Below the pieces are notes generated by a model. It worked only from the letters and a program-made list of their open reading frames with translations. It was not told the DNA's origin and did no database searches. Position numbers and translations under genes: made by a program. This document shows, one piece after another, positions 3,588 through 19,849 of a stretch of 64,000 nucleotides of DNA (positions are counted from its first letter, which is position 1; each line of letters begins with the position of its first letter). Source of the DNA: an uncultured Candidatus Saccharibacteria bacterium (GTDB taxonomy: Bacteria; Patescibacteriota; Minisyncoccia; Phycocordibacterales; UBA918); the NCBI GenBank assembly GCA_964399295.1, contig CAYNQD010000001.1, positions 527,672 through 591,671 of the forward strand, written 5' to 3'.

Positions 3588-3628
3588 AATTTCAGTATAA
3601 CAAAACCATTTTGTAAAGCGAGATATCG

Positions 3629-4951
3629 CTAATTCAGTAATTCTAAAGTTTTATCTTTATATACTATCCTCGATCTCAAATTCGCCAATAACTCTCTCTT
3701 CTCAACAGTCGATCCTTCTTTCAGAATGTATTTTGCGTAGTTCCTGATATCCGTTTCAGGATCAGACTTTATCTTTTCTTTAGCTCCAAGCACTGATCTC
3801 TGGAATATGTTGAATCGTGCAATCTCATCTTCGAGCTTCTTTCGCATGCCTAATTCATTGATATCTACTTTATCTAATATCTTCAGAAGTTCCAGTATTA
3901 AATCTTCTTCTCTTATATACATATTTTTGCAGTTACGGTCTCTGGCTCGTGAGCAGGAGTAGTAGATGTATCTGTTTGCGCCACCAGCTTTAAGTTGTTT
4001 CCATTTCTCTTCAGCAGAGATGCCTGATCCGCAGTATCCGCAAGTAAATAGCTTTGTAAAGGCAAATTCTTTTGTTTCCCTCACTATCTGATCACGCTTG
4101 AGCTGTGCTTTGGCTTTTTCAAATAACTCTTGGGTGATGAGTGGTGCATGTTTTCCTTGATACCAGTTGCCACTATTCTTTGGTCGTTCAAATACCCCAT
4201 AGTAGAAAGGGTTTTCGAGTATACGATAGACACCTGAGAGAGTGAGTGGTTTGTTTCCTCTAGTGTAAAAGTTTAGCTCAAATCTGAGCCAGTTATATAC
4301 CTTTCGACCAGACCATTGCTCGTAGGCGACTTTCTCAAATATCTTTTTTACTGTCGGTGCACGAAGTGTATCTACAATCAGTTGGCACTTCTTATCCATT
4401 AGTCCCTGTGTTAGATAACCTAATGGTGCTATCCCTGACCATAGCCCCATCTCCGCTCTGGTCCGCAGACCCCTCTTCACATTAATACCTCTATTGTCAT
4501 TCTCCAGCTTCGCTTGCGATCCGAGAATCATCAGGAGGAACTTCTCATTTGGATTGTTGCCGAACTTCTGTCCGAACGTTCTTATCTCTTCTAATTTTCC
4601 CGCATCCATCAGGTCTACAATCCTCCCAAGGTCGCCAGCGTTTCTACTGATACGGTCGGGTGCCCATGTCAGAATACCGTTGTATTTACCTTCGCGTATC
4701 TCCTCAACTATTTCATTGAAAACTGGTCGTTGACCTGTCTCTTTGGCAGAGTGAGATTCGCGCTTCATTTCTACTATCTCCAAGCATTCTCGATCTGCGA
4801 GCTGGAGCATTTCCTTGATCTGGCTGTCTATCGAAAGCACTTGGCGTTCCTCAGACTCTGTAGACTTTCTAGCGTATAGGCAATATTTTACTTTTACGGG
4901 TACTACCTCCTGTATTGTCGTGCCGTGTGGCATTGATATCGTTTGATTCAT
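3629..4951 (-). CDS. Large serine recombinase (resolvase/invertase N-terminal domain plus recombinase and zinc-ribbon domains)
   Basis: The N-terminus VKYCLYARKSTESEERQVLSIDSQ carries the catalytic-serine resolvase motif. The C-terminus has a CGYCGS...YYSCSRAR zinc ribbon. The ORF track gives 3629..5056, but that start would overlap the divergent gene at 5022. The internal ATG at 4951 (MNQTISMPHG...) is the likelier start. Confidence 0.8.
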   Translation of the reverse strand: MNQTISMPHGTTIQEVVPVKVKYCLYARKSTESEERQVLSIDSQIKEMLQLADRECLEIVEMKRESHSAKETGQRPVFNEIVEEIREGKYNGILTWAPDRISRNAGDLGRIVDLMDAGKLEEIRTFGQKFGNNPNEKFLLMILGSQAKLENDNRGINVKRGLRTRAEMGLWSGIAPLGYLTQGLMDKKCQLIVDTLRAPTVKKIFEKVAYEQWSGRKVYNWLRFELNFYTRGNKPLTLSGVYRILENPFYYGVFERPKNSGNWYQGKHAPLITQELFEKAKAQLKRDQIVRETKEFAFTKLFTCGYCGSGISAEEKWKQLKAGGANRYIYYSCSRARDRNCKNMYIREEDLILELLKILDKVDINELGMRKKLEDEIARFNIFQRSVLGAKEKIKSDPETDIRNYAKYILKEGSTVEKRELLANLRSRIVYKDKTLELLN

Positions 4952-5021
4952 ATAACCTATCAATGACGCAACGACCCACATAAGTCTAGGCAAAACAGCA
5001 CAAAAGAGTAGAATTCTCTTA

Positions 5022-6074
5022 ATGGCACTACGAAAGCAAAGAATACCTAAATACAAAGGTCATATAATGACTAGTATTGATGCTGCTAAATTGGGAATTG
5101 AAATGTTTAACAGAGTTGAAGGTGTTCACTCAAGACAAGCGGCTTTAATTTTCAATGCTCAAGCTTGGGAATTGTTTGCGAAAGGAGTACTTACTAAAAA
5201 GAAGATAAATATATACAAAGCTGATGGGACCTCACTTAGTGGTGAAGTGGCGGTTCATAAACTTTATAGCAGACTTCATATTTTGAATGAAGTTGAGAGT
5301 CAGACCATTCAACAAGTTTTTTCGCTCAGAAATGAAGCCATGCACCACGTCTTGTCAGATGTGCCTGATGAAATACTGACACATTTAATGTATTTTTCAC
5401 TAAAGATTTACCATAAACTATTAAAGGAACAATTTCCATCGTATTTTAAAGAATTTGATAAGAATTATTTGTCTATTGCTTTCAAGGAAAACACTTTCTA
5501 CTCTCATAGAATCAAAAAACTCTATTCATCCTCTAAAAAAACTAATACCCAGAATAATCATCTTTTATATTTACTTGACCGTGCATGTAAATATGGTGCT
5601 GAATCAGACGAAAACAAGAAAATACTTTCTTATAAAGAGTGGCAAAAAAGAATAAAAGCTAAACCAAAGAAATCAAGAATCTCGAAGCATCTCTCAGTTT
5701 ATGACTATACTCAAAAACAGGATGATGTGCGTTTTGTTCCAGTAGAAACTCCCAAAGGGCATGGGGTAAATATTGATATAAGGAAAGCAAAGAAACAATC
5801 AGAAGCTTTAAGTGTTTTTATTAAAAAAAGTAATCCAGATAATGATTACCCGTTTCTAACTTCAGACATGGCTAGTCATTTGGGCAAGACTGATTATTTT
5901 GTAAGAAAACTAGCAGAAAAACTAAAGTTTGAGGGAAACACTGAATATAAGACTGTTATCAAGACAGGTAAAAAGAGCACAACTAAAAAGTTTTCAAACA
6001 AGGCTTTGGAAAGGATGCGTAGCTGGATTAAAGATAACCCACACTGGAGTCCTTATAAAACAAAGAGTACATAA
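5022..6074 (+). CDS. Hypothetical protein with an Rx4H (HEPN-like) motif and a Lys-rich C-terminal half
   Basis: 350 aa. The motif SLRNEAMHH fits the HEPN Rx4-6H pattern. The C-terminal half is basic and Lys-rich, consistent with nucleic-acid binding. The start may instead be M16 (at 5067). Confidence 0.4.
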   Translation: MALRKQRIPKYKGHIMTSIDAAKLGIEMFNRVEGVHSRQAALIFNAQAWELFAKGVLTKKKINIYKADGTSLSGEVAVHKLYSRLHILNEVESQTIQQVFSLRNEAMHHVLSDVPDEILTHLMYFSLKIYHKLLKEQFPSYFKEFDKNYLSIAFKENTFYSHRIKKLYSSSKKTNTQNNHLLYLLDRACKYGAESDENKKILSYKEWQKRIKAKPKKSRISKHLSVYDYTQKQDDVRFVPVETPKGHGVNIDIRKAKKQSEALSVFIKKSNPDNDYPFLTSDMASHLGKTDYFVRKLAEKLKFEGNTEYKTVIKTGKKSTTKKFSNKALERMRSWIKDNPHWSPYKTKST

Positions 6075-6166
6075 GAAAAAAGATATTTTGCTTCGCAAAA
6101 CCAATAAAGTAAGCTAAGGTACTCAAATGATGATTTCACCTAGATATATAAGCGTATTTAGCCTAT

Positions 6167-9100
6167 TTGTGCTATAAATACTGTATGTACTCAGTAAATG
6201 ACTACCTTTCTGAGATAGCCAAGTACTTTGAAGATGAGAACAGTTCTGAGCACTCGTATCGGACATCATTTCAAAATTACTTAGCTACTATATTCCCCGA
6301 ATCAGAGGGCTATTTTATTCAGCAGGATCAGCGAGCAATAAACGGCAACAAACCAGACTATATTGTCCTCAAGAACAAAGTTCCACTTTTATATATTGAA
6401 GTTAAGAAGGTTGGAGAAGATTTAAATAAAATTGAAAACTCTAATCAAGCCGATCGTTATTTCGGATACACAAACTTAATCATTAGTGATTACGTTGAGT
6501 TTCGTTTTTTCAGGAATGGTCAGCGGTACGACGACTCGATATCACTTGGTGATGTTCATGCTAAAACTCGCACTATCTCCCCTAAGGCAGAGAATGCGGA
6601 GCGTCTTGTGCGTACAACTAAAGACTTCACTAATAGTCAGAAAGAGCCAATCAAGAGTGGTAGGCACTTAGCAAAAATTATGGGAGGTAAGGCTCAGCGC
6701 ATCAGAGATAACGTTATTGCTTTTCTTGAAACTGAAAGTACTGATAAAGATGAGCTAATTCGGATGCGAAGGTTTATTAAGGAGCATTTGATTGAAAACT
6801 TCTCTGATGCAGATTTTGCTGATATGTACGCCCAAACTTTGGTGTATGGACTTTTTGCAGCTCGATACAATGATGATACTCTCGAGAGCTTTAGTCGTCA
6901 GGAGGCACGAGAGTTGGTACCTGCTACCAATCCATTCTTAAAGAGTTTCTTTGATCACATCTCGGGCACTTCTTTCCCTCGCCGTTTAGAACTTATCGTT
7001 AATGAACTTTGTGAGGTATTTACCCATGCAGACGTTAAGGCATTGATGGAGGACTACTTCAAAACAACCGATTTATTTGGTACAGACCATGAGAGTCCAG
7101 ACCCTGTGATCCACTTTTATGAAGACTTCCTTCGAGAATACGACCCTTCTAAAAAGATGGAAATGGGTGTTTTTTACACACCGCTTCCTGTAGTTAGATT
7201 TATTATTCGAGGTATAGACGAGCTTCTTAAGAAGGAGTTTGGTATTGCTAAAGGTTTGGCAGACAACGAAAAGATATCTGTAACAAAAACTCATGTAGAT
7301 GATCGAGGAAAAAATATTAAAGACACTCGAGAGATTCATCGTGTACAAATGCTCGATGTGGCAGTAGGTACTGGTACGTTCCTTAATGAAACGGTGAATC
7401 ATATTCACGAGTCACAGAAATCTAACCAAGGTCGTTGGAATGCGTATGTAGAAGACGATTTATTACCTCGTCTACATGGTTTTGAACTTATGATGGCAAG
7501 TTACACTATTGCTCATCTCAAGCTTGCAATGACCCTCAAGAAGAGTGGCGTGGAAAAGTTTGGAAAACGATTAGGCGTATATCTTAGTAACACGCTCGAT
7601 GATGCTCATAACATACCGTTAACTAGCTCATTATTTGGTGTTGTAGATAGTATTGCTCAGGAAAGCCGACTTGCTTCGGAAGTAAAAAATGACACACCTA
7701 TAATGGTAGTGATGGGTAATCCTCCGTATTCAGTAGTGTCACAGAACCTTCATTATACTGATAATCAAGTTTACAAAGTAGAACCAGGCGGCTTGAAAAA
7801 GCTAAAAGAAGATAAAAATTTCCTTGATGATGATTATGTTAAGTTCATCCGTTTTGCTGAAAGTATGGTTGAGAAAAATGGCGAAGGTATAATTGGGATG
7901 ATTACAAATCATGGCTATATTGATAACCTCTCTTTTAGAGGAATGCGTTGGCATTTAAGGAATACTTTCGATGTGATTTATGTACTGGATCTTCATGGAA
8001 ATAGCACGAAGAAAGAAACTGCACCTGATGGCTCAGAGGATAAAAACGTATTCGACATTAAAACAGGTGTATCAATTATTTTTGGAGTTAAGAAGAAATC
8101 TGAACAAAAAAATAAAGAACTTGCAACTGTGTACACTGCTGACATATATGGGAAGAGGGCTGAAAAATTTGCTGAATTAAGTAGTGCGAATATCGAAGGA
8201 ATTAAATGGAATAAACTACCTGAAGTTTCTGACGTTTGGAGAGTTGAAGGAGAAGGTAAAAGCGATTATATGAAAGGCTTTTCTCTGGCAGATTTATTCC
8301 CAAAAAATACAACCGGTGTCTTTACTCTAGGTGACGGTTTTATCGTTGCTGACAACAAAGATGAACTTGAAAAAAGAATTGAAGTTTTACTCAATGAAGA
8401 TGTGTCAGAGTCACAATTGACCGAGAAATATTCACTTGGAAAAAATTATGCTAGATGGGTCATTGAAAATAAAAAAGCGGGGAAAATAATTGACTTCAGA
8501 AGTACTTTAACTTCACTGAATTACAGACCATTTGATAAACGCTACACCACCCTGACGACTAGTTTGGTTTGGCGTCCGCGTATCTCCGTGATGAAGCATT
8601 TATTGCAATCTGGGAATACGGCGTTGTTATTTAGTAGACAGGGTGGAGCTGCAAATCCCACATCATTTGACACTATTTTTATTTCAGACTCTGCAGTTGA
8701 TCTTAATTTCTTTAGAAGAGGCGGTGAGGTTGTGTGTCCTCTCTACTTGTATGAAGGTGATGACAGAGTTGCTAATCTGGATGATGAGATTGTTAATAAT
8801 ATTGAAAAGATATCGCACAAGACTAATCCAGAGGATATTGTAGATTACATTTACGCGTATCTGCACTCACCTACCTATCGCACAAAGTACAAAGAATTTT
8901 TGAATGGTGACTTTCCTCGAGTTCCTTATCCGAAAAATAAAGATTATTTTTGGAAAATTGTAGAGTCAGGTCGTCACCTAAGAGAACTGCACCTACTTAC
9001 TCATTCTTCAATACAAAATCAAATCACCTCTTTTCCAGAAACTGGAACAGATACGGTAGATAAGCCAGTATTTAAAAATAACCGTGTATATATAAATGAT

Positions 9101-9292
9101 GTTCAGTATTGGGACGGTATACCGAAGGAGGTGTGGGAATTCTATATCGGGGGTTACCAACCATTGCAGAAATATCTAAAAGACCGTAAAGGCAAAAAAC
9201 TAAGCTCAGCAGAGTTTGAGAATTATGAAAAAATGATTGTCTCATTAAATGAAACAATCATGGTTATGAAGGAAATAGATAAAATTATTTAA
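6167..9292 (+). CDS. Type IIG/IIL restriction-modification enzyme (N-terminal PD-ExK nuclease, gamma-class N6-adenine methyltransferase, C-terminal target-recognition region), MmeI/PglX-like
   Basis: 1041 aa. The N-terminus has KPDYIVL...LYIEVKK (PD...E-x-K). The methyltransferase motif IV is VVMGNPPYS, and a motif-I-like LDVAVGTGTF is upstream. The start may be the second Met at 6185. Confidence 0.75.
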   Translation: MCYKYCMYSVNDYLSEIAKYFEDENSSEHSYRTSFQNYLATIFPESEGYFIQQDQRAINGNKPDYIVLKNKVPLLYIEVKKVGEDLNKIENSNQADRYFGYTNLIISDYVEFRFFRNGQRYDDSISLGDVHAKTRTISPKAENAERLVRTTKDFTNSQKEPIKSGRHLAKIMGGKAQRIRDNVIAFLETESTDKDELIRMRRFIKEHLIENFSDADFADMYAQTLVYGLFAARYNDDTLESFSRQEARELVPATNPFLKSFFDHISGTSFPRRLELIVNELCEVFTHADVKALMEDYFKTTDLFGTDHESPDPVIHFYEDFLREYDPSKKMEMGVFYTPLPVVRFIIRGIDELLKKEFGIAKGLADNEKISVTKTHVDDRGKNIKDTREIHRVQMLDVAVGTGTFLNETVNHIHESQKSNQGRWNAYVEDDLLPRLHGFELMMASYTIAHLKLAMTLKKSGVEKFGKRLGVYLSNTLDDAHNIPLTSSLFGVVDSIAQESRLASEVKNDTPIMVVMGNPPYSVVSQNLHYTDNQVYKVEPGGLKKLKEDKNFLDDDYVKFIRFAESMVEKNGEGIIGMITNHGYIDNLSFRGMRWHLRNTFDVIYVLDLHGNSTKKETAPDGSEDKNVFDIKTGVSIIFGVKKKSEQKNKELATVYTADIYGKRAEKFAELSSANIEGIKWNKLPEVSDVWRVEGEGKSDYMKGFSLADLFPKNTTGVFTLGDGFIVADNKDELEKRIEVLLNEDVSESQLTEKYSLGKNYARWVIENKKAGKIIDFRSTLTSLNYRPFDKRYTTLTTSLVWRPRISVMKHLLQSGNTALLFSRQGGAANPTSFDTIFISDSAVDLNFFRRGGEVVCPLYLYEGDDRVANLDDEIVNNIEKISHKTNPEDIVDYIYAYLHSPTYRTKYKEFLNGDFPRVPYPKNKDYFWKIVESGRHLRELHLLTHSSIQNQITSFPETGTDTVDKPVFKNNRVYINDVQYWDGIPKEVWEFYIGGYQPLQKYLKDRKGKKLSSAEFENYEKMIVSLNETIMVMKEIDKII

Positions 9293-9295
9293 TAT

Positions 9296-10006
9296 ATGTC
9301 ACACCAACAAGCCTCAAACTGGATATCTCTCTCAGACATGATGACAGGTCTCATGCTCATCTTTTTACTGATTGCAGTATTGGTCACAATGCAAATTACT
9401 CAAGAACAAAAACAGAGACAACAGTCGGTAGCTGAATATCAAGAAATCAAAGACGATATTTACACAGACCTAAAAGATGCCTTTGGTTCAAAAGAAGATG
9501 CTTGGGGTATTGATATCACACGTGATCTTGTTATTAAGTTTGAAAATCCTGACCTTCTGTTTGGTGTTGATGAAGCTAATTTAACAGAGGGATATAAAAA
9601 CATCTTAAGTGAGTTTATTCCTCTATATATTGGTATTATTAATAAGCAGGAATATAAAGAACGGATTAAGGAGGTCCGAATCGAAGGTCACACAGCTGAT
9701 GTTTCTTCAGCCCACCCTACATACATGAGTACTATTGAACTATCTCAAGATAGATCTAATGCAGTTCTAGAATATATTTTAGAAAATAATTTCTTCAATA
9801 GCCTAGAAGGACCAGACCAAAGAAAATTACGCTTTTGGTTTAGTGCCAACGGTTTGGGTAATGGTAGAACATTAGACCAAAACAGCCAGTATACATACGT
9901 GACAAACGCTCCTATTAGCCCAAATTCGAGAAGAGTTGAATTCCGTATCCTAACGGATAGTGAGAGTTTGATTGACGAAATTTTTAAACAAGATATTAAT
10001 AACTAA
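9296..10006 (+). CDS. MotB/ZorB-like protein (N-terminal TM helix with conserved Asp, C-terminal OmpA-like peptidoglycan-binding domain)
   Basis: 236 aa. NWISLSDMMTGLMLIFLLIAVL matches the MotB TM/plug signature (W..Y/L-A/S-D-L/M-MT.LM.FF). The C-terminus VRIEGHTADVSS...LSQDRSNAVLEYIL...RRVEFRI matches the OmpA-family core. Confidence 0.7.
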   Translation: MSHQQASNWISLSDMMTGLMLIFLLIAVLVTMQITQEQKQRQQSVAEYQEIKDDIYTDLKDAFGSKEDAWGIDITRDLVIKFENPDLLFGVDEANLTEGYKNILSEFIPLYIGIINKQEYKERIKEVRIEGHTADVSSAHPTYMSTIELSQDRSNAVLEYILENNFFNSLEGPDQRKLRFWFSANGLGNGRTLDQNSQYTYVTNAPISPNSRRVEFRILTDSESLIDEIFKQDINN

Positions 10007-10009
10007 ATT

Positions 10010-11158
10010 ATGAGCGATACAACATCTATTATTTTCCTAATTTCAATTGTAGTTTCCGCTATTATTGTGTTTAGTCCTTATGTTCTAAGGTTTTGGAAGA
10101 ATTCAGCCGAAATTCAAACTACTGTTACTACAATGGGTATTGTCGGTACTTTTGTTGGTATCCTCATCAGTCTCTCTAATTTTGACGTAGAGAATATTAG
10201 CACTACCATTCCACAACTTATTGGTGGATTAAAACTTGCTTTCATTACCTCGGTTGCTGGTATTGGTACTGCACTTGTAACCAGTCTTTTTCCTAGACTC
10301 TACCTGATCAAAGCGGAAGTTGTTGATGAAAATCTTTCTGACACTGACCTACTGCGAGCAATACATGGAGAACTACAAAAACTCAATAACAATATTTCAG
10401 GTGATGATGAATCAACTCTTATATACCAGATACAAAAAATGAGGATAAGTATTGTTGATAAGCAAGACGAGCTCAAAAAAGCTTTTGATGAGTTTGCTAG
10501 CCAAATGGCAAAGAATAATATTGAACAGTTAATTGAAGCTATCAATAAAGTGATGGAGGATTTCAATGCCAAAATTAACGATCAGCTTGGTCAAAGCTTT
10601 AAGGAACTTAGTGATTCCGTTCGGTCACTAGTTGAGTGGCAACAAAACTATATAACTACAGTACAAGAAGCCACTGGAGCATTGGGGGCAGCACAAGAGA
10701 GTCTCAAGAATTCGTCAGACAGCCTTACAAATACATCCGATAAGGTTTCTGAGATTGCAGAAAATAATAAGAATATATCTGAGGTAAATCAAGAGCTTAA
10801 GGTCGTTGTCGAAAATTTGAACCAAATGCTTGAGTCAACTGTTGGGTTCTCACAAAATATGAAAGTTCTAGCTGAAAGTCTGAGTGGAAGCGGAGATACA
10901 ATTCGAACTGAAATTAAATCTCTTGTAGAAGAAAGTATACTAAACATGCAGACTCACGCAGAAGATATTTCAAAGAATATAAACGCTATTTCGGATACAG
11001 CGATGAAGAATATGCAAGAGAAAAATACTGAAACCCTACAAAACTTTGAAGAGATTAATCAGAAGACACTTCAAGACTTCGGCGGTCATTTAGCTAGTAT
11101 TGCTGGGAAGATGACTGATGACTTCAGACGTGTTCAGGAGGCCTTGTCTATTAAATAG
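10010..11158 (+). CDS. MotA/TolQ/ExbB-like proton-channel protein with a long C-terminal coiled-coil tail (ZorA-like)
   Basis: 382 aa with three N-terminal TM helices. MGIVGTFVGIL and LKLAFITSVAGIGTALV match the MotA/ExbB TM3-TM4 signatures (LGTVxG ... A.TT..Gl). Residues about 110-382 are heptad-like, Glu/Lys/Gln/Asn/Leu-rich coiled coil. Confidence 0.6.
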   Translation: MSDTTSIIFLISIVVSAIIVFSPYVLRFWKNSAEIQTTVTTMGIVGTFVGILISLSNFDVENISTTIPQLIGGLKLAFITSVAGIGTALVTSLFPRLYLIKAEVVDENLSDTDLLRAIHGELQKLNNNISGDDESTLIYQIQKMRISIVDKQDELKKAFDEFASQMAKNNIEQLIEAINKVMEDFNAKINDQLGQSFKELSDSVRSLVEWQQNYITTVQEATGALGAAQESLKNSSDSLTNTSDKVSEIAENNKNISEVNQELKVVVENLNQMLESTVGFSQNMKVLAESLSGSGDTIRTEIKSLVEESILNMQTHAEDISKNINAISDTAMKNMQEKNTETLQNFEEINQKTLQDFGGHLASIAGKMTDDFRRVQEALSIK

Positions 11159-11166
11159 AATTACAT

Positions 11167-12258
11167 ATGGGAAATAGAGAATTTGAAGAAGCGATAGCAA
11201 ACATCTCAAGTTCTTTTTCTCTGAGTAAAGAAAAAATAGGTGCTCTAAGTGTGAATTGGAAGTTGCTACCAAAAGAGTTGGTTGTAATTGCCGGTAAATT
11301 TGATCGTGGTGAACCAATCTCCGATGCAGAAATTCTTGAGTATAAAAAGGTTTGGAGATCAGACGATCCTCTCATTGATGAAAATGGGAAGCCTTTTGTG
11401 TTTTATATTCATGACTTTGCTAACTCACACTGGGGTAAGCCAAATCGAGTATTTCATGTAGCTTGGTGCACTACGCTTGAGCGGATGGATAATAACGGGC
11501 GTAAAGCAAGGTATGTAAAGAAAGGAGATCTAGATAATAATGATTTTACTGTTGACTATGGTGAAGGGAAAAAAGGTATCGAACACCTACCTGCCTGTAT
11601 AAATTGCCGAACTAAAATGCAGGGCATTGTCGCTCCATCCGATCTTTATTACGAGCGCGATGATATGGATATCAGGAAATTCTTTAATATGTACGGCAGA
11701 CAGGATCTGCTAGACGTAAGCAATCCAATGTACCCAGTTGATTACCCAGCGAACTGGAATCAAATTTCATTGTCTTTACGAGAAAGAGCTAACTGGACAT
11801 GTAGCTCGTGCGGTCTGGATTGTTCTACAAATAAAAATCTACTACACGTACATCACAAAGATGGTAGAAGAGGCGTGGTTCATGCTGGTAATTTAGAAGT
11901 TGTCTGTGTTGATTGTCATAGTAAAAAATTTGGACATTCACACATGCGTACTGGTGTTTCTTCATCTAAGAATAGAATCGTATTTACTCCTAAACAATCT
12001 ACAACTGAGACTGTAAAAGTTCCTGCTTTCACTAATGAAAATACAGTGACTAGAGTTTCAAGTTCTCAACAAAATAAACTAGATAGTTTTATAGCTAATC
12101 CAGATAGGTATGCAACTGGCTCAGAAAAGACAAAACTTAAAGTGAGAGAAGCTCAAGAAACATTTAATCTAATCAAAGAGAGTCTAAGTAAAGCAGAACA
12201 AAACAAGTTTTATGACGCTCTAAAAACTTATCAAAGAACTTTAAAAGACCGATTATGA
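11167..12258 (+). CDS. HNH endonuclease-domain protein (ZorE-like position)
   Basis: 363 aa. CSSCGLDCSTNKNLLHVHHKDGRRGVVHAGNLEVVCVDCHSK is an HNH motif with paired Cys and His-His. Its stop overlaps the next gene's start (ATGA). Confidence 0.7.
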   Translation: MGNREFEEAIANISSSFSLSKEKIGALSVNWKLLPKELVVIAGKFDRGEPISDAEILEYKKVWRSDDPLIDENGKPFVFYIHDFANSHWGKPNRVFHVAWCTTLERMDNNGRKARYVKKGDLDNNDFTVDYGEGKKGIEHLPACINCRTKMQGIVAPSDLYYERDDMDIRKFFNMYGRQDLLDVSNPMYPVDYPANWNQISLSLRERANWTCSSCGLDCSTNKNLLHVHHKDGRRGVVHAGNLEVVCVDCHSKKFGHSHMRTGVSSSKNRIVFTPKQSTTETVKVPAFTNENTVTRVSSSQQNKLDSFIANPDRYATGSEKTKLKVREAQETFNLIKESLSKAEQNKFYDALKTYQRTLKDRL

Positions 12259-13757
12259 TTCTCACAAAAACAGACTTTTTGATTTCTAAAGGATGTAATA
12301 AAAATGCTTGGCTGAAAGTACATAAGCCTGATGTCTATAGAAAAAAAGAACTATCGGCCTTTGAATTGAACATTATCGATACAGGTAATGAAATTGATGA
12401 ACTGGCGAGACAATTGTTCCCGGGTGGTGTTTTAGTTGAAGATCGTCATGATGCCACTCTTACTCAAGAGCTAATTGCTAATCGTACTCCCGTTATATAT
12501 CAGCCTGTATTTATAACTGATAAGTACTCAGCAATCGCTGACATCATTGTCTGGAACAATAATACAGAGGCGTACGACTTATACGAAGTAAAGTCCTCTA
12601 CTGCTACCCATGAAGGAGAAGGCGGCCGTCGAGCTGAAGAGTACAAAAATGACGTCGCGTTCCAGAAGGTTGTAATGGATACGTTATCTATTCCTGTCGG
12701 TAAGTTACATCTAGTTCGTCTAGATAAATCTTATGTTCGCTCTGGAGAGCTTTCAATTCAAAAGCTTTTCATAACTAAAGAAATTACGGAAGATGTAGAG
12801 GAGATTGTGTCTGATATAGAAGGTCAAATGGCAGGCGTTCATGAATATATTAATCGTGAGCAAGAGCCAACTGGTCATTGTGACTGCTGGGTGAAATCTA
12901 AGAGCAATCACTGTACAACTTTCTGGTATTCAAATCCTGATATTCCCGACTACTCTGTCCATCAAATTTCTAGAATTGGTAATAGTCCTACAAAGCTCAC
13001 TGTATTGATTGAGAGTGAAATCATAGATATCCATAAGGTCCCTCACGATTTTGAACTCTCCGATAATCAAAGGCGTCAGGTGGATGTGGCTCAGTCAGGT
13101 AGAACTGTCATCGATTCCGAGGGTGTCGATACTTTTCTTGAACGACTGGAATACCCACTAGCTTTTATTGATTACGAAACATTTCCTTCTGCAGTGCCAA
13201 GATACTCAGGCTATCATCCTTACCAACAAATACCTTTTCAGTTCTCGCTACATATCATTGAAGAAGAAGGTGGTGAAATGACTCATGCTGAATTTCTGCA
13301 TACAGAAAATTCAAATCCAGACGAAAGATTTGTAGAGGCCATAAAAGAACATTTACCACCTACGGGGACTGTTCTTGTTTGGAGTCAAAAGTTTGAGAAA
13401 GGTATCAATAATCAGGTTGCTGAAAGACTGCCTCAGTATCAAGAATTTATCACTAGCGTGCAAGATAGAATCGTTGACCTAATTGAGCCATTTGATGGAA
13501 AAACCGCAGTGTATTGGCATCCAGATTTTCTTGGAAAGTCATCTATCAAATTCGTTTTACCTGCCCTTGTGCCTAAACTTTCATATAAAGAACTAGAGAT
13601 ACAAGAAGGTGGTGCCGCTGCTGATACATGGAACAGAATCGTGTCTGGCGAATATTCAGATGAAGAGGCTCAGCGAAAGATAACTGCACTCCTAAAGTAT
13701 TGTCACTTGGACACTTTGGCGATGGTTGAGATATGGAAGGTGCTCAAGCGGTCATAA
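12255..13757 (+). CDS. Fusion of a Cas4/RecB-like PD-(D/E)xK nuclease (with a Cys cluster) and a DnaQ/DEDD-like 3'-5' exonuclease (DUF2779-like)
   Basis: 500 aa. The N-terminal half has ADIIV...YDLYEVKSS (D...E-V-K) and a GHCDCWVKSKSNHC Cys cluster like the Cas4 Fe-S cluster. The C-terminal half has AFIDYETF, which matches the DnaQ Exo I motif D-x-E-T. The 4-bp start/stop overlap with the HNH gene suggests translational coupling. Confidence 0.5.
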   Translation: MILTKTDFLISKGCNKNAWLKVHKPDVYRKKELSAFELNIIDTGNEIDELARQLFPGGVLVEDRHDATLTQELIANRTPVIYQPVFITDKYSAIADIIVWNNNTEAYDLYEVKSSTATHEGEGGRRAEEYKNDVAFQKVVMDTLSIPVGKLHLVRLDKSYVRSGELSIQKLFITKEITEDVEEIVSDIEGQMAGVHEYINREQEPTGHCDCWVKSKSNHCTTFWYSNPDIPDYSVHQISRIGNSPTKLTVLIESEIIDIHKVPHDFELSDNQRRQVDVAQSGRTVIDSEGVDTFLERLEYPLAFIDYETFPSAVPRYSGYHPYQQIPFQFSLHIIEEEGGEMTHAEFLHTENSNPDERFVEAIKEHLPPTGTVLVWSQKFEKGINNQVAERLPQYQEFITSVQDRIVDLIEPFDGKTAVYWHPDFLGKSSIKFVLPALVPKLSYKELEIQEGGAAADTWNRIVSGEYSDEEAQRKITALLKYCHLDTLAMVEIWKVLKRS

Positions 13758-13779
13758 GTCGTCTGTTATTATATTAAGT

Positions 13780-14442
13780 ATGGAATTTTCTACATCAAAC
13801 ATCATCAAAGGAATACTCTCAGGCATGTGGGAGATGAAAGAGCTATATTTCACGATGATTGGTGTAGCACTGCTCGCACTCGCACTTCGAGTGATGATTG
13901 ACCTCATGAGTCGGCGAAGTAAGATCAAATGGTTTTTAGGAAAGAAGCAAGTGCAAGATCTTCAGAAACTTACCCCTACACAATTTGAAGAATATATCGC
14001 AGTACTTTTTAAATCTCTTGGCTATGAAACTAGAGTTACGGGTGGCAAGGGTGACGGTGGTGTAGATGTTCAAGCTGAAAAAGACGGTCATGTTCACTAC
14101 ATCCAGTGTAAGAAATTCATCACCTCAAAAGTGCCAGTCAGTGCGGTACGTGATTTTTATGGAGCCATTGCAGATCGAGTAGATGGAGGAAAAGGGTATT
14201 TTATTACCACCAACGTTTTCACTCTTGATGCTGAGAAGTTTGCTGAGGATAAACCAATTGAACTCATCGACAAGTTTAAGTTAATGGAGTACATGCAGAT
14301 GGTGGATGCTGATATTCCTGAAGTAAAAGCGTCAGTTTGTCCAAAATGTGGAAGTGAGCTAGTGAGACGTCGAGGCAAGTATGGTGCTTTTCTAGGCTGT
14401 AGCACATATCCAGATTGTGACTATACAGAGAAACTTACCTAA
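13780..14442 (+). CDS. Mrr-family restriction endonuclease with a C-terminal topoisomerase-type C4 zinc ribbon and an N-terminal TM segment
   Basis: FEEYIAVLFKSLGYETRVTGGKGDGGVDVQAEKDGHVHYIQCKKF matches the Mrr_cat core (GxxDxGxD...QxK). The C-terminus is CPKCGSELVRRRGKYGAFLGCSTYPDCDY. The ORF track start at 13726 overlaps the previous gene, so the Met at 13780 is used here. Confidence 0.65.
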   Translation: MEFSTSNIIKGILSGMWEMKELYFTMIGVALLALALRVMIDLMSRRSKIKWFLGKKQVQDLQKLTPTQFEEYIAVLFKSLGYETRVTGGKGDGGVDVQAEKDGHVHYIQCKKFITSKVPVSAVRDFYGAIADRVDGGKGYFITTNVFTLDAEKFAEDKPIELIDKFKLMEYMQMVDADIPEVKASVCPKCGSELVRRRGKYGAFLGCSTYPDCDYTEKLT

Positions 14443-15914
14443 GTTCGTAGTTTACTCAACTCCTCGGTAAATACTTCTAGACCCTCATTCTGTTTTGGAA
14501 TGAGGTTTTGTATTGTAATACTTGGGTCAGGTAGGAATGTTTGTATTGGGTACTTAATATTTCTTTTAGTATAAATAACCTCTTGTATATGGTCATCTGT
14601 GTGCCGCAGGTAAAAATTTAGAGTATTGATGGAGTCTGAAATTTCAGCAAGTTGGTTTAATACTTTCTCACTCAAGTCCTCTCCAACGATTTCTGACATT
14701 CTCTCAGCAATAGCCTTGAAAGCTAGTAGATGACTGTAGCTCTCAAATACTGACGATTCATGGACTAGAAAAGCTGGATAACTGTACATCATTAAGTCAG
14801 TAATTTGATTTTGATAATCATTCACAAACGGTAGTTGTATATTTGATTGCACAAGACTTTCTCCAGTTATAAAAGTCTTGTTGAGACACACTTCAAAAAA
14901 CTTAGTCGGGCATTCTTTAAGTACTAGGTCACCAGTAGAAATATATTGCTGTAGCAGATTAACTGTTTTATCTTTAGCCTTTATCCAGCGTCGCATAATT
15001 TCATCGTGTCTGAGTTCAGTTTCGCCTTCGAAAGTCAGATGCCCCTCGCTGTTACACAGCGGTGTATATTCATCAAAAAATAGACCTTCACGTATGGAGT
15101 CCCGAACAATACCCTCAAGCTTGTATTTCAGATCAGGGAGCTTAGCCAGTTCAGCATGAAGCTCGTCTTCAGTTTTGAATAAAATATTGTTTCGACTAGC
15201 TAATCGTTTCCCGAAGTTAAGTAAAGGATAGCCAGCAAAGTGGGTTTTAAAGATAACCTCTTTAACGCTTATTTTCACCACACTAAAATTAGCCTCTTGC
15301 CCCCAAGGGATTGAGTCGATAACTATCTTAGTAAGAACGTCTACTTCTTTTTCTGAGAGTGACTGCTTACCAGTAAGGATACGAGCTAGTTGCTCTTCAG
15401 CTAAAAAGTATGAGTGGTCTGATGTTACAGAAGGATCGAGTAGTAATATATCTTGCTGAAGTTTCTTAGGTAATGAATAGAATGTATACAGATGCACCAG
15501 TCTGTCGTATTCAAAGCCAGAGTGCTGTAAAAAGAAGTCACGAAACTCTTTAGTGTGATCATCCGGGATCACTCGACTAAGAAAATGCTTACGTTGCTTT
15601 GGGCTATCCCTTTTGTAGTAAAACATTTGGGCGATCTGCTCCAAGCGAGCAATAGATAGCTGCGATACCAAGTATGAGGTCTGCATATCTATTTCTAGTC
15701 GGCCGAACATATTCCAGACCTCTAGATATTTGTTGTACTGCTCAGCCTCTCTATAATCACGAGGTTTCCAACTCGTTGTCAGGGCTACGATATCGGCTTC
15801 AGTAACAAGACCCTTCCCAGTCTTCCGCTCATGAGCTTCATTTCGTATCACTAACAAAACTCGCTCCCGAGGGGTCAGGTTTCCTTTAGCCAGTAGTTTT
15901 GTAATATCTTTCAT
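14439..15914 (-). CDS. Hypothetical protein (last gene of the minus-strand accessory operon)
   Basis: 491-aa ORF with no recognisable motif. It converges on the plus-strand defence operon, and the stops are 4 bp apart. Confidence 0.45.
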   Translation of the reverse strand: MKDITKLLAKGNLTPRERVLLVIRNEAHERKTGKGLVTEADIVALTTSWKPRDYREAEQYNKYLEVWNMFGRLEIDMQTSYLVSQLSIARLEQIAQMFYYKRDSPKQRKHFLSRVIPDDHTKEFRDFFLQHSGFEYDRLVHLYTFYSLPKKLQQDILLLDPSVTSDHSYFLAEEQLARILTGKQSLSEKEVDVLTKIVIDSIPWGQEANFSVVKISVKEVIFKTHFAGYPLLNFGKRLASRNNILFKTEDELHAELAKLPDLKYKLEGIVRDSIREGLFFDEYTPLCNSEGHLTFEGETELRHDEIMRRWIKAKDKTVNLLQQYISTGDLVLKECPTKFFEVCLNKTFITGESLVQSNIQLPFVNDYQNQITDLMMYSYPAFLVHESSVFESYSHLLAFKAIAERMSEIVGEDLSEKVLNQLAEISDSINTLNFYLRHTDDHIQEVIYTKRNIKYPIQTFLPDPSITIQNLIPKQNEGLEVFTEELSKLRT

Positions 15915-15916
15915 AG

Positions 15917-16123
15917 TTACTTTCTTTGAGTAAGCATTTGTTCCAGTACATCGATACGCTGTTTGAGTTCCATGTTAGTAATGTTTTTAGACAAGGCTAA
16001 CGCTATTCGAGATATGACCTGAGCCCGCTTAGGTGAAATCTTTCTAGCGGCTACTTGGAGCAGGGCATCAGAGAGGATTTCATTAACTTCAGCTAAGTTT
16101 AGTGTTTTCTTTATTTCTTTCAT
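15917..16123 (-). CDS. Small hypothetical protein
   Basis: 68 aa. It is tightly packed between flanking genes in the same orientation. Confidence 0.35.
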   Translation of the reverse strand: MKEIKKTLNLAEVNEILSDALLQVAARKISPKRAQVISRIALALSKNITNMELKQRIDVLEQMLTQRK

Positions 16124-16126
16124 AAG

Positions 16127-16513
16127 CTAAAAGTTTTCAATTATTTCAAACCAAGTTTTTACCTCCTTTGATTTACCGTGCTTGGTAGCATTTTTATACA
16201 AGGCCAACACTACGTTTGGTGTCAGTTTTCTGGCCCATGTATAGGTATGTTCAAGCAAGCCCTCGTCTTCAATCCGTTTATTCCAGTCAGTGAGTGTACC
16301 TAGGTCTTTGACGTTGTAGTGTGAAGCAAAGTCTTTTTGAGTTTTTATCTGCAATAGCTCAATGGTGATGTCGTCATCAATACCCATCTTTCTTAGTACA
16401 GCATCAGGCTGACCTCGCAGGAATGTCGGTAGTGATTTCCACGTCACATACGCCGCAAAGTCCTGTTTGCGATATACACCAGTATTTCTTTTTTCATTAT
16501 GATGCTCGCTCAT
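16127..16513 (-). CDS. Hypothetical protein (phage-like small protein)
   Basis: 128 aa. It overlaps the upstream methyltransferase gene by 17 nt. Confidence 0.4.
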   Translation of the reverse strand: MSEHHNEKRNTGVYRKQDFAAYVTWKSLPTFLRGQPDAVLRKMGIDDDITIELLQIKTQKDFASHYNVKDLGTLTDWNKRIEDEGLLEHTYTWARKLTPNVVLALYKNATKHGKSKEVKTWFEIIENF

Positions 16514-17270
16514 GCTTTGTGATTAATACTCGCTTCTGCTTCGTCAGCTCTTCTAGTCGCTTTAGACAGATTTCTACATACTCAGAGTCCTGTTCAATTC
16601 CAATACAAACGCGACCTAACTGAGCACAAGCAACAGCGGTACTTCCGCTTCCTAAGAATCCGTCATACACGACATCGCCAATACTGGTGACGTTTTGAAT
16701 TAGTTTCCGTAGTAGGCCAATCGGTTTTTGCGTAGGGTGGAGCTTTGACTTCTGTGGTCGAGGATGGAATATGGCACTGCTCATTTGAGCTTTTACTCGC
16801 TTGTGCTTTTTATACCAACCATAAGCAATAAGCTCTTGCTGAGGCAGATAGTCCATACGACCCATTACCGATTGGTTTTTGACCCATATCAGCATCTGAC
16901 TGAAATGTAGTCCTGCGGTGTACATGCCAGTTCTAAGAGCCAGAAACATGCTGTCGCAGTTAAAGATATGGAAGGTGTTGTATGGGTTCAGATGTGGCAA
17001 AACGGCCTCGATCCATGACTGAGTAAACCGAGCGTACTCATATTCACTTTGTATATGGTCACCCTTAATCACTTTGGCGTTTTTCTTACCAAGTTCAGCT
17101 ACGCCTACTTTATTCTCCACGTACGCTACTCCATAAGGCGGATCGGTCACAACTGATTGAATCTTTTTGGTACCAATAACCATCGCTACAAAATCTTTGT
17201 TAAGTGAGTCGCCACAGGCAACCACATGTTCGCCAACAGAGTAGATTTCTCCTGTAGTTATAGATTTCAT
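16497..17270 (-). CDS. DNA methyltransferase (beta-class N6-adenine or N4-cytosine)
   Basis: The catalytic motif is SVVTDPPYGVAY (DPPY). The SAM-binding region is HPTQKP...DGFLGSGST. This motif order is typical of beta-class amino-methyltransferases. Confidence 0.8.
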   Translation of the reverse strand: MKSITTGEIYSVGEHVVACGDSLNKDFVAMVIGTKKIQSVVTDPPYGVAYVENKVGVAELGKKNAKVIKGDHIQSEYEYARFTQSWIEAVLPHLNPYNTFHIFNCDSMFLALRTGMYTAGLHFSQMLIWVKNQSVMGRMDYLPQQELIAYGWYKKHKRVKAQMSSAIFHPRPQKSKLHPTQKPIGLLRKLIQNVTSIGDVVYDGFLGSGSTAVACAQLGRVCIGIEQDSEYVEICLKRLEELTKQKRVLITKHERAS

Positions 17271-18550
17271 ATTCGCTTAGCAGTTAGCTTGGTAAATTTC
17301 TCCCAGCGGTCAATGATGATGCTCGCGAATACGGGGTCTTGCTCTACTCCAAACCAGACACGTCGCAATTGCTCGCAAGCAATCAAATCACTACCACTAC
17401 CACCAAAACCAGAGAAGACAACGTGACCTGGAGCAGTACATCGCTTGAGTGGCTTTTCGTTTAGACCAACAGGCTTCTGGGTTGGGTGGAGGTAACTTTG
17501 CACATCATCTCGCTTCACTATCCAAAGATCGATCATGTCTAAGAGCTCGTTGTGGAGCTGGTTGCCAGTGGTGACTTCCTGATTAAGAATTTCATTTACG
17601 TTCTTAAGATTCTGGTTTAGGTAGGCTTTACCTGTCGTGCCATAGATTGCGGGCTCATGTACTCGGTTAAACGCAACCTTCGGCGTCATATTCTGATTAT
17701 TCTTTACCCAGTAACAGATTCGTCTGAAGAGTATCTTGTGTTGTTTATACAGTGCTTGAATTTCTCCCACGTACTTAGCGTCACACCAGTACAGATAGTG
17801 AGAATCGGCATGAGCTATTACTTTAGCTGTACTGATACTTGCTTCAATAAATGCATAGTACTCAGCATCACTCATCGAGTCTTTTTTACTAGAGTACTGA
17901 CCCCCGTATTCCTTAGTGTTACTAATTCCTTTGTTATATGAAAGCCCAATGTTATAGGGCATATCTTGAAAGATGAAGTGGGCTTTTGTTTCGCCCATAA
18001 ACGTTGATACGAGCTCTTTATCAGTAGAGTCTCCAACAAGTAGGCGATGTTCTCCTAATTGCCACACTTCGCCAGCCTTTGCTCGGGGTTCAACCATCTC
18101 TTCAATTGCTTTGTCGACATCGTATTCATCTTCAGCTAATTCAACGTCATCGAAGAAGTCTTGTATTTCGTCATCTTCAAATCCAACATCCAGAAGAACT
18201 GATAGATCGAAGTTCTTCAAAAGCTCTTCGTCCCATGAGCCAGTATTCTTGTTGAGCCTAAGATTCAGCTCACGCTCTTCTTCGAGTGACAGTTCCCGAG
18301 AAGGGATCATGCATTCGACTGTCTTGTACCCTAGGTCAGCGTAGATTTTTATTCTCTGCTCGCCCCCGATGATGACATCAGCCCGTGAATCAATATTGAG
18401 AACTACTGGCACTACTGCACCAAATGTCTCAATCGATTTCTGTAGGTCTTGTTTTTGGTTACCGCTAACTTTACGTGGATTGTATTCGTTAGGTGTAAGG
18501 TCTTGCACCTTACGAGTAGCGGATGACCACGTTATCTTTTTTGTTTTCAT
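17267..18550 (-). CDS. ParB-like nuclease domain fused to a DNA methyltransferase
   Basis: The N-terminus (TPNEYNPRKVSGNQKQDLQKSIETFGAVVPVVLN) is a ParB/Srx-like domain. The C-terminus has FQDMPYN (a DPPY variant) and HPTQKPVGL...SGFGGSGS methyltransferase motifs. There is a 4-bp overlap with the downstream methyltransferase gene. Confidence 0.75.
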   Translation of the reverse strand: MKTKKITWSSATRKVQDLTPNEYNPRKVSGNQKQDLQKSIETFGAVVPVVLNIDSRADVIIGGEQRIKIYADLGYKTVECMIPSRELSLEEERELNLRLNKNTGSWDEELLKNFDLSVLLDVGFEDDEIQDFFDDVELAEDEYDVDKAIEEMVEPRAKAGEVWQLGEHRLLVGDSTDKELVSTFMGETKAHFIFQDMPYNIGLSYNKGISNTKEYGGQYSSKKDSMSDAEYYAFIEASISTAKVIAHADSHYLYWCDAKYVGEIQALYKQHKILFRRICYWVKNNQNMTPKVAFNRVHEPAIYGTTGKAYLNQNLKNVNEILNQEVTTGNQLHNELLDMIDLWIVKRDDVQSYLHPTQKPVGLNEKPLKRCTAPGHVVFSGFGGSGSDLIACEQLRRVWFGVEQDPVFASIIIDRWEKFTKLTAKRI

Positions 18551-18703
18551 AAGACTTATATTTAGGCACGTTGTTATACGTGTTAAGTCTTATGGTGGCA
18601 CCTAAAAATCAACCTCCAAAATGGAGGAAATTGGAGGAAACTTTAGAAAAGGTAGAGTACGTTTAGAGTATTTGAGGCTTATCCACAGCCATTTTCCTCC
18701 ACG

Positions 18704-19849
18704 CTACTCCAGTGAGTATAAATTGTTGAATCTGATACTAGTGCGAGTGATATTAAAGATAGGCTGGCTGTCGTTCGGATGAGAATTTATGATTTTATGC
18801 TTCTTTAAAAGTTTCTCAAAGCTCGTATTACTACCGATAAGTTGGGTACGATATTTTTCAGGATCATTTTCTACTCCGTCTGGTAAGAGTTTGATGAATT
18901 CATTTATATTTAATTCAATGACACGCTCTGGCATATATCGAATAACATTCTTGAAGAGTTGTATGTACTGATAGTCTTCACCCTTGTTTGTTGTTTTGTA
19001 TAAAAGTTTACTGTTTTGAAAATATATATGGTCCTGCTTAATTTCAAACAGCTTTGCTTGTTGTATTTCAGAGAGAGTAAAGACAATGCTGTTATGAAGA
19101 CGACTCAAATCTTGTGATATCCCTGCTTGAGGGTATGCGTTTGTTGCACTAAGGGTGGCCTGTTTAATTTTATTTATATAAGTGACACGAGCTACTGGTT
19201 TCTGCATCATTTCTACAAATTCACTCAATGTGATTTTGGTGTCATCATTAAAATTCAACATTTGATGATACAGCTTCACTCCTCGCATTAATGCACCAGA
19301 TACAGACAAGGCATCCTGATCATGAAATGTTCTGTGAAGTCCTAAAAAGTCAGCTCGTTTTTCAAACGAAATTAAATTATCACTCCTCATATCTTTAGCA
19401 GGATTAAAAGTCTCGTTGAGAAATGACATTGCTTCATCATCATACCCTAGTCTTTGCAATTCTTTTACTGCATCAAGTAACTCAAGTTCATTTGAGCCTA
19501 GCGGATGTTCATTTGAACCATGGTGGTTATGAGTCGCAAATGTCCGAAGACAACTTATCCGATCAGCAAGTAGGGCATTGCTTTCTAGATCATTCTTTTC
19601 AACTATAGCTTCAAGCGTTTCAACTGCCTTACCCGCACTCTGAACAATCTCGTCGTATTTATTTTGAAGTGCTTTGAGGTCATTTTCTCTGGCTACTACT
19701 GCTGGTGCTAAATGTTCAATCAAAGCAAATCCATCAGTAACTAAAAAGCTAAAATAGTCCGCAAAGGCAGTTAGGAAAGTGTTTGTGGAGTGACTATTTT
19801 GCTGTATGGATTCATACAGCTTTTGCTCCTTATCTACCACGCTTTTCAT
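18704..19849 (-). CDS. Hypothetical protein
   Basis: 381-aa ORF and the first gene of the minus-strand accessory operon. No motif was recognised. Confidence 0.45.
   Translation of the reverse strand: MKSVVDKEQKLYESIQQNSHSTNTFLTAFADYFSFLVTDGFALIEHLAPAVVARENDLKALQNKYDEIVQSAGKAVETLEAIVEKNDLESNALLADRISCLRTFATHNHHGSNEHPLGSNELELLDAVKELQRLGYDDEAMSFLNETFNPAKDMRSDNLISFEKRADFLGLHRTFHDQDALSVSGALMRGVKLYHQMLNFNDDTKITLSEFVEMMQKPVARVTYINKIKQATLSATNAYPQAGISQDLSRLHNSIVFTLSEIQQAKLFEIKQDHIYFQNSKLLYKTTNKGEDYQYIQLFKNVIRYMPERVIELNINEFIKLLPDGVENDPEKYRTQLIGSNTSFEKLLKKHKIINSHPNDSQPIFNITRTSIRFNNLYSLE

Follow-up and report, generated by a model that had tools for sequence, protein, structure and literature searches.

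The 64,000-nucleotide stretch analysed here, called the window in what follows, comes from contig CAYNQD010000001.1 (assembly GCA_964399295.1, positions 527,672 to 591,671 of the forward strand) of an uncultured Candidatus Saccharibacteria bacterium. It carries three adjacent genes, all on the + strand, which very probably make up a type II Zorya defence system with zorB placed before zorA. The first two open reading frames (ORFs) are separated by 3 nt and the last two by 8 nt. The sequence-only reading of this DNA, made by a model that ran no database searches, had proposed a MotB-like, a MotA-like and an HNH nuclease gene in this order with gaps of 3 and 8 bp, and the triplet is confirmed both by the ORF coordinates and by homology far beyond chance. 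The genes and the features recognised in them, with the evidence used, are the following:

9296..10006, + strand: zorB (ORF1, 236 aa), a type II ZorB and MotB-like stator subunit; ZorB2 profile match
9323..9400, + strand: N-terminal transmembrane (TM) helix of ZorB with the ion-binding aspartate D14 (codon 9335-9337); alignment
9557..9889, + strand: OmpA-like peptidoglycan-binding domain of ZorB, residues 88-198; Pfam OmpA
10010..11158, + strand: zorA (ORF2, 382 aa), a type II ZorA; ZorA2 profile and 8VVI match
10019..10288, + strand: membrane motor part of ZorA with three TM helices, residues 4-93; AlphaFold2 (AF2) and Pfam MotA_ExbB
10200..10650, + strand: recombination breakpoint zone in zorA, near the junction of motor and tail; DNA identity profiles
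10340..11152, + strand: cytoplasmic helical tail of ZorA, residues 111-381; AF2 and periodicity
11167..12258, + strand: zorE (ORF3, 363 aa), the type II effector with DUF8245 and an HNH nuclease domain; ZorE2 profile match
11800..11943, + strand: HNH active-site region of ZorE, residues 212-259, CxxC...HVHH...N242...CxxCH...H257
11956..12255, + strand: C-terminal extension of ZorE, residues 264-363, variable within the clade; AF2

Gene orders are abbreviated below as B-A-E (zorB-zorA-zorE, as in the window) and A-B-E (zorA-zorB-zorE), and loci other than the window are given by L numbers. ORF1 shows the N-terminal TM helix with an aspartate, the C-terminal OmpA-like domain and the profile match of a type II ZorB. 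The PADLOC model ZorB2 (PDLC00641) aligns with residues 3-232 of the protein over model positions 11-236 of 238 (E 1.7e-67, 226 bits), Pfam finds the OmpA domain with E 4.4e-8 together with a weak MotB_plug match, and the closest solved structure is the type II ZorB of Sulfuricurvum kujiense (8vvi_A, E 2.6e-35). W9 and D14 are invariant in an alignment of 21 sequences that takes in both clades, B-A-E and A-B-E, as well as E. coli ZorB2, and the OmpA motifs EGHT, LSQxR and SRRVEF are conserved in it as well. In the match to S. kujiense ZorB, D14 falls on D21, the critical aspartate of that protein (PMC11890865). A placement of this ZorB as an intermediate between types I and II, raised by a 175-bit match to the PADLOC model named 'ZorB1' (PDLC00609), was rejected, as E. 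coli ZorB2 itself scores 188 bits with that model.

ORF2 combines a MotA/ExbB-like domain with a long helical tail and a match to ZorA2. The PADLOC model PDLC00637 covers it over positions 16-362 of 420 (E 2e-58) and five further ZorA2 models match, while the ZorA1 and ZorA3 models reach E 6e-14 at best; the closest solved structure is again S. kujiense type II ZorA (8vvi_F, E 9.9e-29, residues 31-357), and Pfam MotA_ExbB matches residues 33-102 with E 5.7e-7. The AF2 model, based on a 23-sequence alignment and with a mean predicted local distance difference test score (pLDDT) of 66.6, predicts TM helices at residues 4-26, 32-56 and 63-93, followed by helices at 111-129, 138-290 and 296-381. 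Two residues of the membrane part, T47 in a GTF motif and S81 in a TS motif, are almost invariant and, by analogy with the motor described in PMC11890865, would form a polar ring around the ZorB aspartate.

The tail of this ZorA contains zero prolines, and its hydrophobic periodicity (3.67 residues at 138-215 and 296-381, 3.5 residues at 216-290) exceeds that of 1000 shuffled sequences, being matched in at most 0.4% of them. It had been described as a continuous coiled coil, which is roughly right insofar as the tail is all-helical, amphipathic and of the bundle type, but the predicted helices are interrupted by three breaks. The tail is conserved in relatives, and conservation across the family peaks in its proximal part (residues 141-215), where L174, V181, F185, N186, N190, W210 and Q211 are invariant. 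The tail had also been thought to be much shorter than in canonical ZorA, a view that has to be abandoned: S. kujiense ZorA is 378 aa long with its tail at 100-378, next to a ZorB of ~235 aa, and the sizes of Zorya proteins are well conserved within each type (PMC11890865), so that the 382 aa of the window protein are normal for type II. Among the collected loci, type II ZorA lengths range from 323 to ~817 aa.

ORF3 matches the PADLOC model ZorE2 (PDLC00642, 'HNH endonuclease') with E 3.6e-37 and, at residues 49-257, shows 34% identity to E. coli ZorE (E 6e-30). An HNH domain was not matched in ORF3 by the local copy of Pfam; precomputed Pfam annotation lists PF26739 (DUF8245) for an identical protein and an HNH family for two relatives, PF01844 (P0290) and PF13392 (P0297), with a weak PF13392 match in a third. 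H230, N242, H251/H257 and the CxxC pairs are conserved. Defence by E. coli Zorya II is lost when H90, Y189, H226, K231, N238, L239, H247 or H253 of its ZorE is mutated (PMC13192584), and the equivalents in the window protein are, in this order, H97, Y193, H230, R235, N242, L243, H251 and H257, a DUF8245 and HNH architecture with intact catalytic residues. A sequence search of solved structures with ZorE gave zero matches. In the AF2 model, with an overall pLDDT of 69.3, the C-terminal extension of ~100 aa consists of a linker (residues 265-293, pLDDT below 50) and a helical hairpin (299-362, pLDDT above 90); it is unrelated to the C-terminus of E. coli ZorE, is shared by the window with L084, L085, L089 and L094, and is missing from L087, L088, L095, L096 and L097, in which ZorE has 256-274 aa.

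The logic and ancestry of a type II Zorya, as first suggested from the sequence, therefore stand up to profile searches, in which all three proteins match the type II families: the best matches are to the ZorB2, ZorA2 and ZorE models and, among solved structures, to type II ZorAB. The generic Pfam matches to MotA_ExbB and OmpA could also come from a housekeeping motor of the Tol-Pal, Ton or flagellar stator kind that merely adjoins a nuclease gene. This is extremely improbable. The 5:2 motors MotAB, ExbBD and TolQR share the superfamily fold, with a MotA_ExbB channel and a partner that has a TM aspartate, but they show neither of two Zorya features, a long helical tail and a ZorE in strict linkage. 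Membership in the ExbB/ExbD, TolQ/TolR or flagellar stator families is contradicted by the much higher scores of the Zor profiles; for ORF1 the NCBIfam flagellar models MotB, MotD and MotS give 23-26 bits, against 103 bits for ZorB2. Moreover, no TonB, Pal, TolA or flagellar genes were found in those B-A-E loci whose called genes were examined, and the module lies within a low-GC mobile island together with other defence genes.

A second alternative, already entertained in the sequence-only reading, is convergence, that is, the independent recruitment of a stator-like MotAB/ExbBD-type motor beside an unrelated HNH nuclease. The gene order, unlike that of every described Zorya type, and an identity of 24-39% to the characterised systems would be expected from such an origin, yet it can be given almost no credence, as the homology to canonical type II Zorya extends to all three genes together. 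All three proteins, the effector included, match type II profiles specifically, ZorE shares its architecture and essential residues with E. coli ZorE, the flagellar MotB models give ~25 bits where ZorB2 reaches 103 (NCBIfam) or 226 (PADLOC), and the type I outgroups fall apart from all type II sequences, both B-A-E and A-B-E, in 200/200 replicates of the rooted trees.

The other Zorya types fit the window less well. Type I (zorABCD; Hu et al. 2025, PMC11946911) shares with it the 5:2 ZorAB motor, a peptidoglycan-anchoring ZorB and effector control through the tail, but type I ZorA has ~730 aa with an extra cytoplasmic domain, and the ZorA1 and ZorB1 profile matches of the window proteins are weak. 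A ZorC (EH-signature) match is absent from the window, and the sole match to a ZorD model there, over ~120 residues, is the Mrr-like domain of a 238-aa ORF (13726-14442) without an SNF2 helicase. For type III, neither ZorF (DUF3348) nor ZorG (DUF2894) was found by Pfam or PADLOC in the eight neighbouring ORFs, and the PADLOC models ZorA3 and ZorB3 give E 1e-8 at best. Within type II, the system of S. kujiense, for which the ZorA5B2 complex was solved by cryo-electron microscopy (8VVI; Mariano et al. 2025, PMC11890865), is the best solved match and has proteins of nearly equal size; common to both are a compact ZorA with three TM helices, a helical tail of ~280 residues, the ZorB aspartate (D21 there, D14 here) and the OmpA-like domain. 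Pairwise identity is nonetheless low, and the host is a diderm campylobacterote there and a member of the Patescibacteria here. The E. coli type II system, in which defence has been shown experimentally and ZorE is a nickase (PMC11890865, PMC13192584), consists of the same three families, and its best PADLOC families for ZorB and ZorA, ZorB2 and ZorA2, are identical to those of the window; it differs in its A-B-E order, in a ZorA2 of 550 aa with a longer tail than that of the 382-aa window protein, and in proteins that pass the NCBIfam equivalog cut-offs.

Type II Zorya has been described as zorA-zorB-zorE (PMC13192584, PMC11946911), an order that the window, with zorB-zorA-zorE, does not follow. 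One genome per GTDB species was scanned with a ZorA alignment, which yielded 80 loci, and gene order was read by tblastn with the window proteins. The order was A-B-(E) in 76 of the 80 and B-A-E in the remaining four (L001, L002, L007, L080), and it is in these four that ZorB is most similar to the window protein (44-59% identity, 28-39% elsewhere). Nine more metagenomic or metagenome-assembled genome (MAG) loci, found through ZorA homologues, are all B-A-E (L084, L085, L087, L088, L089, L094-L097), which brings the independent B-A-E loci to 14 with the window, with ZorA identity to the window falling from 93% to ~28-33%. At the lower end stands the Gracilibacteria locus L080, readable only with genetic code 25, where ZorA has 481 aa and is 28% identical over the full-length code-25 protein and 33% over the tblastn segment, and where two inserted ORFs (133 and 230 aa, at 6805-7955) separate zorB from zorA. 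The annotation of four plasmid loci was read, and all four are A-B-E, namely those of E. coli (zorA2-zorB2-zorE in the Prokaryotic Genome Annotation Pipeline), Spirosoma, Vibrio and Pseudomonas. The inversion of zorB and zorA relative to canonical zorABE, pointed out in the sequence-only reading, is thus real, and the B-A-HNH triplet recurs in other genomes.

The B-A-E loci are separated from the A-B-E loci in 100/100 neighbour-joining (NJ) bootstrap replicates of the ZorA, ZorB and concatenated trees (nine loci, no outgroup). In trees of 14 loci rooted with two type I outgroups, NJ support for the B-A-E clade is 75% for ZorB, 88% for ZorA and 86% for the concatenation, and monophyly of A-B-E is recovered in just 2-44% of the replicates of these type I-rooted trees, so that the B-A-E clade may be nested within A-B-E lineages. 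In motAB, exbBD and tolQR the A gene also precedes the B gene. The two type I Zorya loci that were read have zorA before zorB, and in the published orders of Zorya types I-III zorA stands directly before zorB (PMC11946911); because all of these agree, the B-A order is most parsimoniously a derived state.

A description of a B-A-E Zorya clade was not found in the literature. To our knowledge, detection tools do not require the canonical Zorya gene order, and as PADLOC-type profile models match all three proteins strongly, such tools would probably label the locus Zorya type II. On the other hand, the phylogeny and tail-length analyses of Hu et al. drew only on RefSeq genomes in which the order is canonical and left other arrangements out (PMC11946911), and the B-A-E clade would therefore be missing from them. 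The clade has thus probably escaped published surveys of Zorya diversity, restricted to RefSeq and to zorABE-ordered loci. What is new is a rearranged variant of a known defence system, and it brings no new defence principle. Apart from the B-A-E loci, nine A-B loci of the scan (L058, L059, L061, L068, L071, L073, L074, L076 and L078) have ZorA2-like and ZorB2-like proteins and no downstream tblastn match to ZorE; they group together in the ZorAB tree, may carry another effector and could be a further Zorya subtype.

Wherever a host is labelled, the B-A-E clade is associated with Patescibacteria (the candidate phyla radiation, CPR), on the basis of the window and three labelled loci, two from Kaiserbacteria (L001, L007) and one from Gracilibacteria (L080). 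In SecY the window shows 85-90% identity to MAG proteins assigned to Candidatus Nomurabacteria, Pacebacteria and Parcubacteria, and these three groups, like Kaiserbacteria and Gracilibacteria, all belong to the 'Patescibacteria group' of NCBI. Labelled hosts of A-B-E loci are Bacteroidota, Poribacteria, Latescibacterota, Alpha- and Gammaproteobacteria, Helicobacter, Nitrospina and others. The B-A-E clade extends the range of Zorya into Patescibacteria, which have single-membrane envelopes and small genomes. Zorya has been reported as under-represented in single-membrane bacteria (Hu et al., PMC11946911). As for virus-borne copies, a ZorB scan of viral contigs gave zero relatives, and in a phage collection one unannotated 6.5-kb record matched with 33% identity.

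Several points weigh against so firm a placement. NCBIfam, in which the top matches of the three ORFs are also ZorB2, ZorA2 and ZorE, scores them far under its equivalog cut-offs (103 of 400 bits, 138 of 700 bits and, with E 8.8e-31, 107 of 600 bits, respectively), and for this reason the NCBI pipeline would leave the proteins unnamed. Identity to characterised type II proteins is just the 24-39% given above, the monomer AF2 models are of moderate confidence (pLDDT 66.6 for ZorA and 69.3 for ZorE), and a Foldseek search of the Protein Data Bank with the ZorE model gave no significant match. A defence role for members of the B-A-E clade is suggested by homology, and the 5:2 stoichiometry, the bundling of the tails and the recruitment of ZorE are likewise presumed from the characterised systems. 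With regard to the hosts, a Patescibacteria label is found in just 3 of the 13 other B-A-E loci, L002 being labelled only 'bacterium'. Even so, the triplet is, with high probability, a complete and intact type II Zorya from a divergent sub-lineage, one with a derived, clade-marking order of zorB before zorA and with the three genes as an autonomous unit.

Comparison of the window with individual relatives shows that the module is a mosaic. Relative to L095, identity is 86% in ZorB, 77% in ZorA residues 1-100, 48% in residues 141-220, ~30% in residues 221-382 and ~40% in ZorE. The values for L085 run the other way, with 64% in ZorB, 40% in ZorA 1-100, 91% in 141-220, 80-89% in 221-382 and 86-90% in ZorE, and L087 and L088 resemble L085 in this pattern. 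At the DNA level, window and L095 are 72-85% identical up to ~10196 and 32-40% past ~10646, and window and L085 are 55-69% identical up to ~10346 and 70-82% beyond, which places the switch at ~10200-10650, around the motor/tail junction of zorA.

The same division is seen across the clade. Spearman correlations of pairwise-distance matrices over the 14 B-A-E loci are 0.73 for ZorB with the ZorA motor, 0.82 for the ZorA tail with ZorE and 0.33 for motor with tail. In a taxon bootstrap, the correlation of tail and ZorE exceeds that of motor and tail by a median of 0.45 (95% confidence interval 0.08-0.93; zero or below in 0.7% of replicates), and that of ZorB and motor does so by a median of 0.33 (zero or below in 5.1%). 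Over 43 A-B-E loci the motor/tail correlation is again the weakest (0.34), with 0.62 for ZorB and ZorE and 0.53 for tail and ZorB, values that track physical adjacency. Since the link between motor and tail is the weakest in both orders, recombination within zorA takes place where motor and tail meet, whichever the gene order. The module therefore splits into zorB plus the zorA motor and the zorA tail plus zorE, and both parts are contiguous only in the B-A-E order. Only in this order do the cassettes match the physical partners that have been proposed, which, as a correlation in a small and phylogenetically non-independent sample, fits a recruitment of ZorE that depends on ZorAB (PMC11890865). 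The mosaic gives independent sequence-based support for the two couplings proposed from structures, one between ZorB and the motor part of ZorA and one between ZorE and the ZorA tail. It also points to natural junctions at which chimeras could be made to probe the specificity between tail and effector.

By homology with the characterised E. coli and S. kujiense systems (PMC11890865, PMC11946911, PMC13192584), five ZorA and two ZorB subunits would assemble into an ion-driven rotary motor in the inner membrane, which the OmpA-like domain of ZorB would anchor to the peptidoglycan. Ion flow past ZorB D14 and the ZorA Thr/Ser ring (T47, S81) would power the complex. When a phage perturbs the envelope, the bundled helical tail of ZorA would recruit or activate the soluble HNH nickase ZorE, and nicking of DNA by ZorE would lead to immunity. 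A more tentative proposal, which we consider possible but rather doubtful, is that the B-A-E lineage is a Patescibacteria-adapted branch of type II, with a motor that works in the single-membrane CPR envelope and a gene order that is adaptive. Were it true, a Zorya motor would be shown to work in ultra-small CPR cells with their single-membrane envelope, and each interacting pair would correspond to one contiguous cassette, so that the sensor core and the tail plus effector could be exchanged independently. The mosaics seen between the window and L095 and, in reverse, between the window and L085 agree with such an exchange.

The surroundings of the triplet differ in composition from the rest of the window, with a GC (guanine plus cytosine) content of 35-40% over ~2-16 kb and ~45% elsewhere, and contain the following genes:

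1281-1370: tRNA-Ser(GCT)
2223-3587, - strand: Shedu SduA
3629-5056, - strand: large serine recombinase
5022-6074, + strand: DUF3644/PDC-S19 gene
6167-9292, + strand: type IIG restriction-modification (RM) enzyme (N6_Mtase and Type_ISP_C)
12255-13757, + strand: DUF2779 gene of ~500 aa
13726-14442, + strand: Mrr-type nuclease of 238 aa (Mrr_cat and zinc ribbon)
14439-18550, - strand: 491-aa ORF, a small ORF and two N6_N4 methyltransferases, one of them fused to ParB

The sequence-only reading had placed the module inside a larger fused operon, and the RM enzyme, ZorB-A-E, the DUF2779 protein and the Mrr nuclease could accordingly be regarded as one larger, co-transcribed and cooperating system, in which, for instance, sensing by Zorya would supply further nucleases with a signal or RM and Zorya would act synergistically. 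Seven co-directional + strand genes do run from 5022 to 14442 at spacings of -4 to ~92 nt, with a 4-nt overlap between zorE and the DUF2779 gene, and the sole downstream terminator-like hairpin on the + strand (14483-14505) follows directly after the Mrr gene. The block RM - ZorBAE - DUF2779 - (x) - Mrr is retained in L084 and L085, with the RM gene in the same place directly upstream of zorB (6167-9292 in the window, 6216-9281 in L084, 5127-8198 in L085), and synergy of Zorya II with neighbouring systems has been documented in E. coli (PMC13192584). Nevertheless, scans of the window for promoters and terminators showed no enrichment over shuffles, and an operon structure is therefore suggested by gene spacing only.

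The comparison with relatives speaks more strongly against a larger system, which we judge unlikely. The RM, DUF2779 and Mrr set accompanies the triplet only in its closest relatives, L084 and L085; 10 of the 14 B-A-E loci (L087-L089, L094, L096, L097, L001, L002, L007, L080) lack all of these flanking genes, and none of them has a match at E<1e-4 in any of the 80 species-representative loci (76 A-B-E). Even where the block is retained, identity to the RM enzyme of the window is no more than 41-42% (L084 and L085), although ZorB and ZorA of L084 reach 93-94%, and an extra 390-aa gene is inserted; this divergence and this insertion point to shuffling of the island, and the divergence indicates that the RM gene has been replaced within a conserved island frame. 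In L087, L088 and L089 the triplet stands alone amid housekeeping genes, and an all-against-all comparison of flanking ORFs found no neighbour conserved across the B-A-E clade, for which reason the three genes are read as an autonomous unit and the rest as a shuffled defence island. The DUF2779 gene does recur, lying near the B-A-E module in 4 of the 14 loci (window 12255-13757, L084 12250-13755, L085 11149-12654, L095 9245-10714), in L095 with a serine recombinase gene between it and the module, and none of the 76 A-B-E loci has it. Its product could be accessory to Zorya, or the gene could travel with the module on one mobile element.

The shuffled island, together with the two ORFs inserted between zorB and zorA in L080, might also be taken as signs of an inactive, decaying Zorya remnant. 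This is very unlikely, since the window has three full-length ORFs whose sizes are kept in the 12 other standard-code B-A-E loci, that is, without L080 (ZorA 323-388 aa, ZorB called 219-262 aa), and since the catalytic and ion-path residues are invariant; substitutions that would abolish function were not seen. The type II Zorya of the window is accordingly regarded as intact, within an island (1281 to 20200) that has the appearance of either a remnant prophage or an integrative defence island. A search around the island for the direct repeats of an integration site gave none that were convincing, and among its phage-like neighbours PHROGs matched only methyltransferase and ParB families, with no terminase match for the 491-aa ORF. 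A 493-aa homologue of this ORF in L085 has a weak Terminase_6C match.

Outside the island, the window contains a tRNA-Ile with anticodon TAT (30979-31052) and a transfer-messenger RNA (37399-37795) with the tag peptide AKKSIPSPYANAFGFAPAFA. A beta-CASP metallo-beta-lactamase nuclease encoded at 47104-48465 scores 409 bits, against a cut-off of 800 bits, with the NCBIfam model 'type VII CRISPR Cas14', and is taken to be a housekeeping enzyme of the RNase J/CPSF type rather than a Cas protein. Finally, a 501-aa protein of the phospholipase D (PLD) family, encoded at 38791-40296, has weak matches to NucT and DrmC.

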